This document shows, one piece after another, positions 24,324 through 24,384 of a DNA stretch of 64,000 bases. The DNA lies in NCBI RefSeq assembly GCF_000026545.1, contig NC_011601.1; one strand, 5' to 3'. Made by a program: the position numbers and the translations under genes. The stretch's first letter is position 1. Every line of letters starts with the position of its first letter. This DNA comes from Escherichia coli O127:H6 str. E2348/69. GTDB lineage: Bacteria; Pseudomonadota; Gammaproteobacteria; Enterobacterales; Enterobacteriaceae. The notes below the pieces were generated by a model. The model was given only the letters and a program-made list of their open reading frames with translations, was not told where the DNA came from and did no database searches.

Positions 24324-24342
24324 TAACGCGTTAGCTTAATAA

Positions 24343-24376
24343 GAAAAAAGGTGAGTTTTGCGACTCACCTTTTTTG
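24343..24376. terminator. Bidirectional rho-independent terminator between fadL and mlaA
   Basis: A-run, hairpin aggtgagt/actcacct, T-run. Confidence 0.75.
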
Positions 24377-24384
24377 TTTGTTTC

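Follow-up and report, generated by a model that had tools for sequence, protein, structure and literature searches.

Bidirectional intrinsic (Rho-independent) terminators, in which a GC-rich stem-loop flanked by an A-run and an opposing T-run lies directly past two convergent stop codons, are widespread in Escherichia coli. RNA polymerase collisions as a route to bidirectional termination are the subject of one preprint. A second class of element relevant to the locus described here is the small, horizontally acquired islet silenced by H-NS, of which yfdF, yccE and yjgL are examples in E. coli and Shigella (PMC9769918). In E. coli, H-NS silences the AT-rich gene yfdF, and a MxiE box mediates its activation in Shigella flexneri (PMC9769918); AT-richness and silencing by H-NS together fit a horizontally acquired islet. 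The K-12 counterpart of the site analysed here belongs to this second class, whereas the 64,000-nucleotide stretch of the E. coli O127:H6 str. E2348/69 chromosome that we examined (the window) has the unoccupied site rather than the islet.

In the window, fadL (positions 22983 to 24323, plus strand) encodes the long-chain fatty acid outer-membrane channel that is also the phage T2 receptor, and mlaA (vacJ; 24385 to 25140, minus strand) encodes the outer-membrane lipoprotein of the Mla phospholipid transport system. Both assignments come from the E2348/69 RefSeq annotation and from Pfam, in which FadL matches the Toluene_X/FadL family (E 1.5e-162) and MlaA the MlaA family (E 1.3e-65). The annotated start of fadL is at 22983, with an in-frame ATG of the same open reading frame also present at 22977; the listed plus-strand reading frame ending at 24323 has 448 codons and the minus-strand mlaA reading frame 251. 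The stop codons, located from the open reading frame listing and the sequence itself, occupy 24321-24323 (fadL) and 24385-24387 (mlaA), and the spacer between them (24324 to 24384, to which no strand is assigned) is exactly 61 bp in length and contains neither an open reading frame nor a repeat. The E2348/69 chromosome in RefSeq is 100% identical to the window in this region, and its annotation names fadL and mlaA with nothing in between. The original prediction, made from the sequence alone, was of two convergent genes 61 bp apart sharing one terminator hairpin, and both the coordinates and the presence of a single hairpin agree with it.

The hairpin in question is a predicted bidirectional intrinsic terminator at 24344 to 24375, again with no strand assigned. 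An A6 run (24344-24349) is followed by the left arm GGTGAGT (24350-24356), a loop (24357-24362), the right arm ACTCACC (24363-24369), which pairs with the left, and a T6 run (24370-24375). The stem comprises 7-8 bp, four of them G-C pairs, and the core stem-loop (24350-24369) is separated from the fadL stop codon by 26 nt and from that of mlaA by 15 nt. Folding of the RNA of the 61-bp spacer gave -20.5 kcal/mol (z -4.3) for the plus strand and -16.4 kcal/mol (z -4.5) for the minus strand, the z-scores being computed against dinucleotide shuffles. A terminator consensus scan flagged the hairpin on the plus strand only, because the A:T runs are there scored as stem pairs; direct inspection shows that the minus-strand RNA, too, has a 7-bp stem followed by UUUUUU. 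A single hairpin with A6 on one side and T6 on the other can thus work as an intrinsic terminator for transcription from either gene. U-tracts are found on both transcribed strands, and the A- and T-runs show little or no variation across 34 species. There is only one copy of the hairpin in the 64-kb window, and this rules out a dispersed repeat such as REP as its identity.

An alignment of 34 distinct enterobacterial spacers reveals how the hairpin has changed over time. In the structure given above, 98% of cells are paired, compared with 44-68% in a control in which the pairing partners were slid. Compensatory changes are seen in five of the 13 pairs, with 26 cells having both sides changed, and the covariation score of 0.207 (0.097 in shuffles) was attained by none of 500 shuffles, a conservation far beyond chance. 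The arms differ by genus: Escherichia has GGTGAGT/ACTCACC, most genera have GGTGAGC/GCTCACC, and Kluyvera and Klebsiella have GGGTGAAC/GTTCACCC, with GGTGCGC/GCGCACC and GGCGAACC/GGTTCGCC occurring as further paired variants. Outside the hairpin, the spacer alignment shows no conservation between genera. Covariation combined with conserved A- and T-runs is what an intrinsic terminator serving both convergent genes should show, and on these comparative grounds the element probably is one. It has the GC-rich stem-loop, the A-run and T-run flanks and the position directly past two convergent stop codons that characterise bidirectional intrinsic terminators, as well as their compensatory conservation, and structurally it does not differ from them. 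The symmetric arrangement of A-run, GC-rich stem and T-run would then be the sole functional element of the spacer, and would stop RNA polymerase arriving from either fadL or mlaA.

The same interval in K-12 is quite different in size. According to the original prediction, K-12 has an extra gene, yfdF, between fadL and mlaA, and this is borne out by MG1655, in which yfdF is b2345 and the spacer is 1605 bp in length, as opposed to 61 bp here; the direct fadL–mlaA junction that would have contradicted this was not found when the window was checked against the MG1655 interval. Numbered on the MG1655 locus (L001), the end of fadL falls at 4147 and that of mlaA at 5753, with yfdF at 4513-5571. The K-12 fadL–yfdF–mlaA interval (b2344-b2346) and the window have in common the flanking genes, the 12 bases that directly follow fadL (TAACGCGTT plus the GC of A/CGC) and everything from the hairpin A-run onward, with the old hairpin still present in K-12 on the mlaA side, between yfdF and mlaA. 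Between these shared ends, K-12 has 1552 bp (L001 4160-5711), across which GC content falls to 29-40%, whilst the window has 8 bp only, TTAATAAG (24336-24343, no strand). Comparison of the junctions in the window, E. coli KKo009, K-12, O157 Sakai and the outgroups identifies these 8 bp as the unoccupied insertion site, where K-12 and O157 have the 1552-bp yfdF segment instead. The window accordingly lacks the AT-rich segment, yfdF and a second hairpin, a perfect 13-bp stem without a T-run, which the insert places directly after fadL (L001 4165-4193). The 3-nt loop of this fadL-proximal hairpin reads ATA in K-12 and TAT in O157 Sakai (L085 ~1517-1545), on identical stems.

The left (GCGTTCGC|CTGG) and right (ATAACAAC|AAAAAAGG) insertion junctions are identical in K-12 and O157 Sakai, although the yfdF segments of the two strains are only ~93% identical to one another. 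Identical junctions despite this degree of divergence point to a single insertion of some age. KKo009, an E. coli strain with the empty site, also carries GCGTTCGC, the variant matching the left junction of K-12. The exact boundary of the insert is ambiguous by a few bases. No direct or inverted repeats at its ends, duplication of the target site or attachment-site repeat were found around L001 4160-5711, and the annotation shows no transposase or integrase inside the K-12 insert. A mobile-element signature (IS, transposon or integrase-mediated) at the ends of the insert was accordingly rejected. The loop of the hairpin shares a 10-mer, TGAGTTTTGC, with the left part of the insert, about as chance would have it, since a rough estimate gives ~1.4 such matches expected in 1.7 kb.

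YfdF itself matches no Pfam or NCBIfam family. No phage matches to the protein were found. Five plasmid matches fall in records between 0.37 and 4.9 Mb in length, of which those from 1.4 Mb upward resemble mislabelled chromosomes. All named organisms among the best 120 of 435 YfdF homologues are E. coli or Shigella, and neither these 120 nor the phage and plasmid searches identify a donor. The K-12 protein is 352 amino acids in length, most of the best 120 of 435 homologues being ~415-425 amino acids and 65-98% identical to it; YfdF alleles differ by up to 35% in amino acids, far above the E. coli core genome. The K-12 yfdF islet can be characterised, therefore, as AT-rich, without known domains and, among the best 120 of 435 homologues, confined to E. 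coli and Shigella.

Within E. coli, the yfdF segment is present in 4270 of 5426 complete genomes (79%) and falls into two classes, one K-12-like (95-100% identity) and the other O157-like (90-95% identity and ~185 bp longer). The direct junction, scored where one place in the genome covers at least 80% of the query spanning it, is present in 1125 of the 5426. At ~21% of complete E. coli genomes, it is a state typical of a clade and not of one strain. A 45-mer across the junction is found at 95% identity or above in 1042 genomes, and at 99% or above in 1011. Carriers of this 45-mer include LF82, Nissle 1917, NC101 and an O25b:H4-ST131 strain, all of which, like E2348/69, we take to belong to phylogroup B2. 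A further state is seen in E. coli N61 (L004, NZ_AP028880.1, ~3960-4010), where a deletion has removed yfdF together with the shared hairpin and the 3' half of fadL, and fadL is a pseudogene abutting the end of mlaA. Like the predicted bidirectional terminator, the presence/absence polymorphism of a known orphan gene is ordinary, and there is nothing new in kind here.

To establish the direction of change, the mlaA neighbourhood was taken from 80 GTDB species representatives, a set from which E. fergusonii is absent, and fadL, mlaA and yfdF were located by tblastn. A direct tail-to-tail fadL–mlaA junction is present in 77 of the 80 enterobacterial species, with 41-126 bp between the stop codons (41-67 bp in 73 of the 77), and tblastn found no yfdF match in the mlaA neighbourhood of any of these 77. 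The species with a direct junction include E. albertii, E. whittamii and three more Escherichia species, as well as members of Salmonella, Citrobacter, Kluyvera, Enterobacter, Kosakonia and Klebsiella. The spacers of the Escherichia outgroups are 59-61 bp in length and have TTAATAAG, or a one-base variant of it, ahead of the A-run; that of Escherichia sp. MOD1-EC7003 (L007) differs from the window at one of 61 positions. Outgroup parsimony and the retained 8 bp together argue that the change was an insertion and not a deletion. The window very probably represents the ancestral enterobacterial arrangement, with fadL and mlaA converging on one two-way hairpin at a site that was never occupied, and yfdF a later insertion in other lineages such as that of K-12. 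Two explanations had been offered in the original prediction for the difference from K-12. The ancestral empty site is favoured, given the direct junction in 77 of 80 outgroup species, a hairpin kept among them by compensatory changes, the retention of TTAATAAG and the identical K-12 and Sakai junctions. A strain-specific deletion fares badly on both counts: deletion is disfavoured by the retained 8 bp and by the outgroups, and strain-specificity is simply wrong for a state found in about a fifth of complete genomes.

Unrelated insertions are also seen in this part of the chromosome. Trabulsiella odontotermitis TbOT1.10 has ~2.3 kb between mlaA and fadL (L053 5754-8137) carrying a T6SS Hcp gene and an unknown ORF, a second strain of the same species (L039) having the direct junction. 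In Superficieibacter electus, an insert of ~2.3 kb between mlaA and fadL (L072 5754-8116) carries genes for a UbiD-like decarboxylase and a MarR regulator. In the window, the tRNA-Arg (CCT) gene argW (26442-26516) lies downstream of yfdC and is followed by a prophage integrase gene (26642-27835; intS in the E2348/69 annotation) and then by phage tail-fibre assembly remnants. In other strains, this position is taken by dsdC/dsdX or by an MFS transporter gene, and the differing content identifies a variable integration hotspot ~2 kb from the fadL–mlaA junction.

The fadL gene of the window is itself a divergent allele. Across the block 23177-24340, nucleotide identity to K-12 is 50-82% in 150-bp windows, and the FadL proteins of the two strains are only ~77% identical overall. 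The flanks on both sides of this block are 97-100% identical to K-12, the divergence stopping at the spacer. FadL of the window type has 98-99% amino-acid identity to the proteins of several other Escherichia species, whilst those of E. albertii and E. whittamii are, like that of K-12, only ~77% identical to it. Either type of fadL occurs in E. coli both with yfdF and without it, giving four combinations in all, a pattern that matches the mosaic evolution of FadL already published (PMC12175518). The divergent allele was considered as a possible cause of the empty site and rejected, as both allele types are found with the empty site and both are found with yfdF.

Two other histories could have led to the arrangement seen in the window. 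In one, yfdF was present in the lineage of the window, as it is in K-12, and was then deleted, so that only the 61-bp spacer remained. Such a history would be in keeping with yfdF being the majority state in complete E. coli genomes and with losses at the locus that do happen, N61 being an example. A deletion scar, however, should contain no bases foreign to the occupied allele, and the 8 bp kept by the window are missing from both K-12 and Sakai but present, exactly or with one base changed, in the Escherichia outgroups. Deletion from the K-12 state cannot recreate 8 bp that K-12 does not have, and the window is thus better seen as an ancestral, never-occupied site. In addition, yfdF is missing from all 77 outgroup species with the short junction, no remnants of the yfdF segment were found in empty-site spacers, there is no microhomology able to yield the window sequence from that of K-12, and the one deletion observed, that of N61, is ragged, the hairpin and half of fadL having gone with yfdF. 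Taken together, these points make loss of yfdF from this lineage scarcely credible. In the other history, the ancestor had yfdF and the empty allele was restored by homologous recombination with a donor such as a cryptic Escherichia clade. Here the adjoining fadL block (~23177-24340), which is a recombinant allele, is suggestive, as are the four combinations of fadL type and yfdF presence, which imply frequent recombination at the locus; since fadL alleles are mosaic and uncoupled from the presence of yfdF, an empty allele could indeed have been re-imported. Strain MSB2_1A, however, combines a K-12-type fadL with an identical empty spacer and with mlaA-side flanks ~99.6-100% identical to the window, a combination that makes the empty site independent of the imported fadL block. 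That the junction 45-mer is common to 1042 genomes fits vertical inheritance in one large clade, and re-acquisition adds a step that no evidence requires. We consider it improbable.

A different type of alternative concerns the hairpin rather than the history of the site. Its main role might be other than termination, either as part of a small RNA derived from the 3' UTR of fadL or mlaA or as a protein-binding palindrome. The stem sequence is unusually well kept from Escherichia to Klebsiella, and there are weak Rfam resemblances below threshold, such as that to STnc390 (19.7 bits, where the gathering score is 50). In the spacer of the window, however, every Rfam match stays below the gathering score of its family, and STnc390 is without any match to the Salmonella fadL–mlaA spacers. 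Neither is the sequence flanking the hairpin kept between genera, and covariation accompanied by conserved A- and T-runs is what a two-way terminator requires. A main role other than termination is on this evidence very unlikely. The presence of a known small RNA in the spacer was rejected in its own right, the Rfam matches being sub-threshold and terminator-like and the best-placed of them, STnc390, having no match in two Salmonella loci. It is also conceivable, if distinctly far-fetched, that foreign genes have landed repeatedly at the convergent fadL–mlaA terminator in the Enterobacteriaceae, yfdF in E. coli, the Hcp gene with its unknown ORF in one T. odontotermitis strain and the decarboxylase and regulator genes in S. 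electus, or that the unusually conserved hairpin does something further, such as forming the terminus of a small RNA derived from a 3' UTR.

Under the preferred reading, that of an ancestral and never-occupied site, the lineage of the window (E2348/69-like, with well-known B2 strains among those that have the same junction) would never have received yfdF. A single AT-rich segment of 1.55 kb, comprising yfdF and its own fadL-proximal hairpin, would instead have entered, just upstream of the A-run, the genome of an ancestor shared by most of the remaining E. coli and Shigella. The 8 bp would have been replaced in the process, and the old hairpin would have remained in use for yfdF and mlaA.

These results have a number of consequences. 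For annotation of the window, no additional gene call is needed between fadL and mlaA, and the interval documents a well-conserved, predicted two-way terminator common to the two genes. Should the landing-site idea prove true, it would imply a repeat-free insertion mechanism aimed at the A-run side of bidirectional terminators. More broadly, the comparison gives polarity to a small pangenome difference, yfdF having very probably been gained in most E. coli and not lost in E2348/69-like (B2) strains. For studies of yfdF, a gene silenced by H-NS and regulated by MxiE in Shigella, the B2 strains would provide natural nulls in which the ancestral site is intact.
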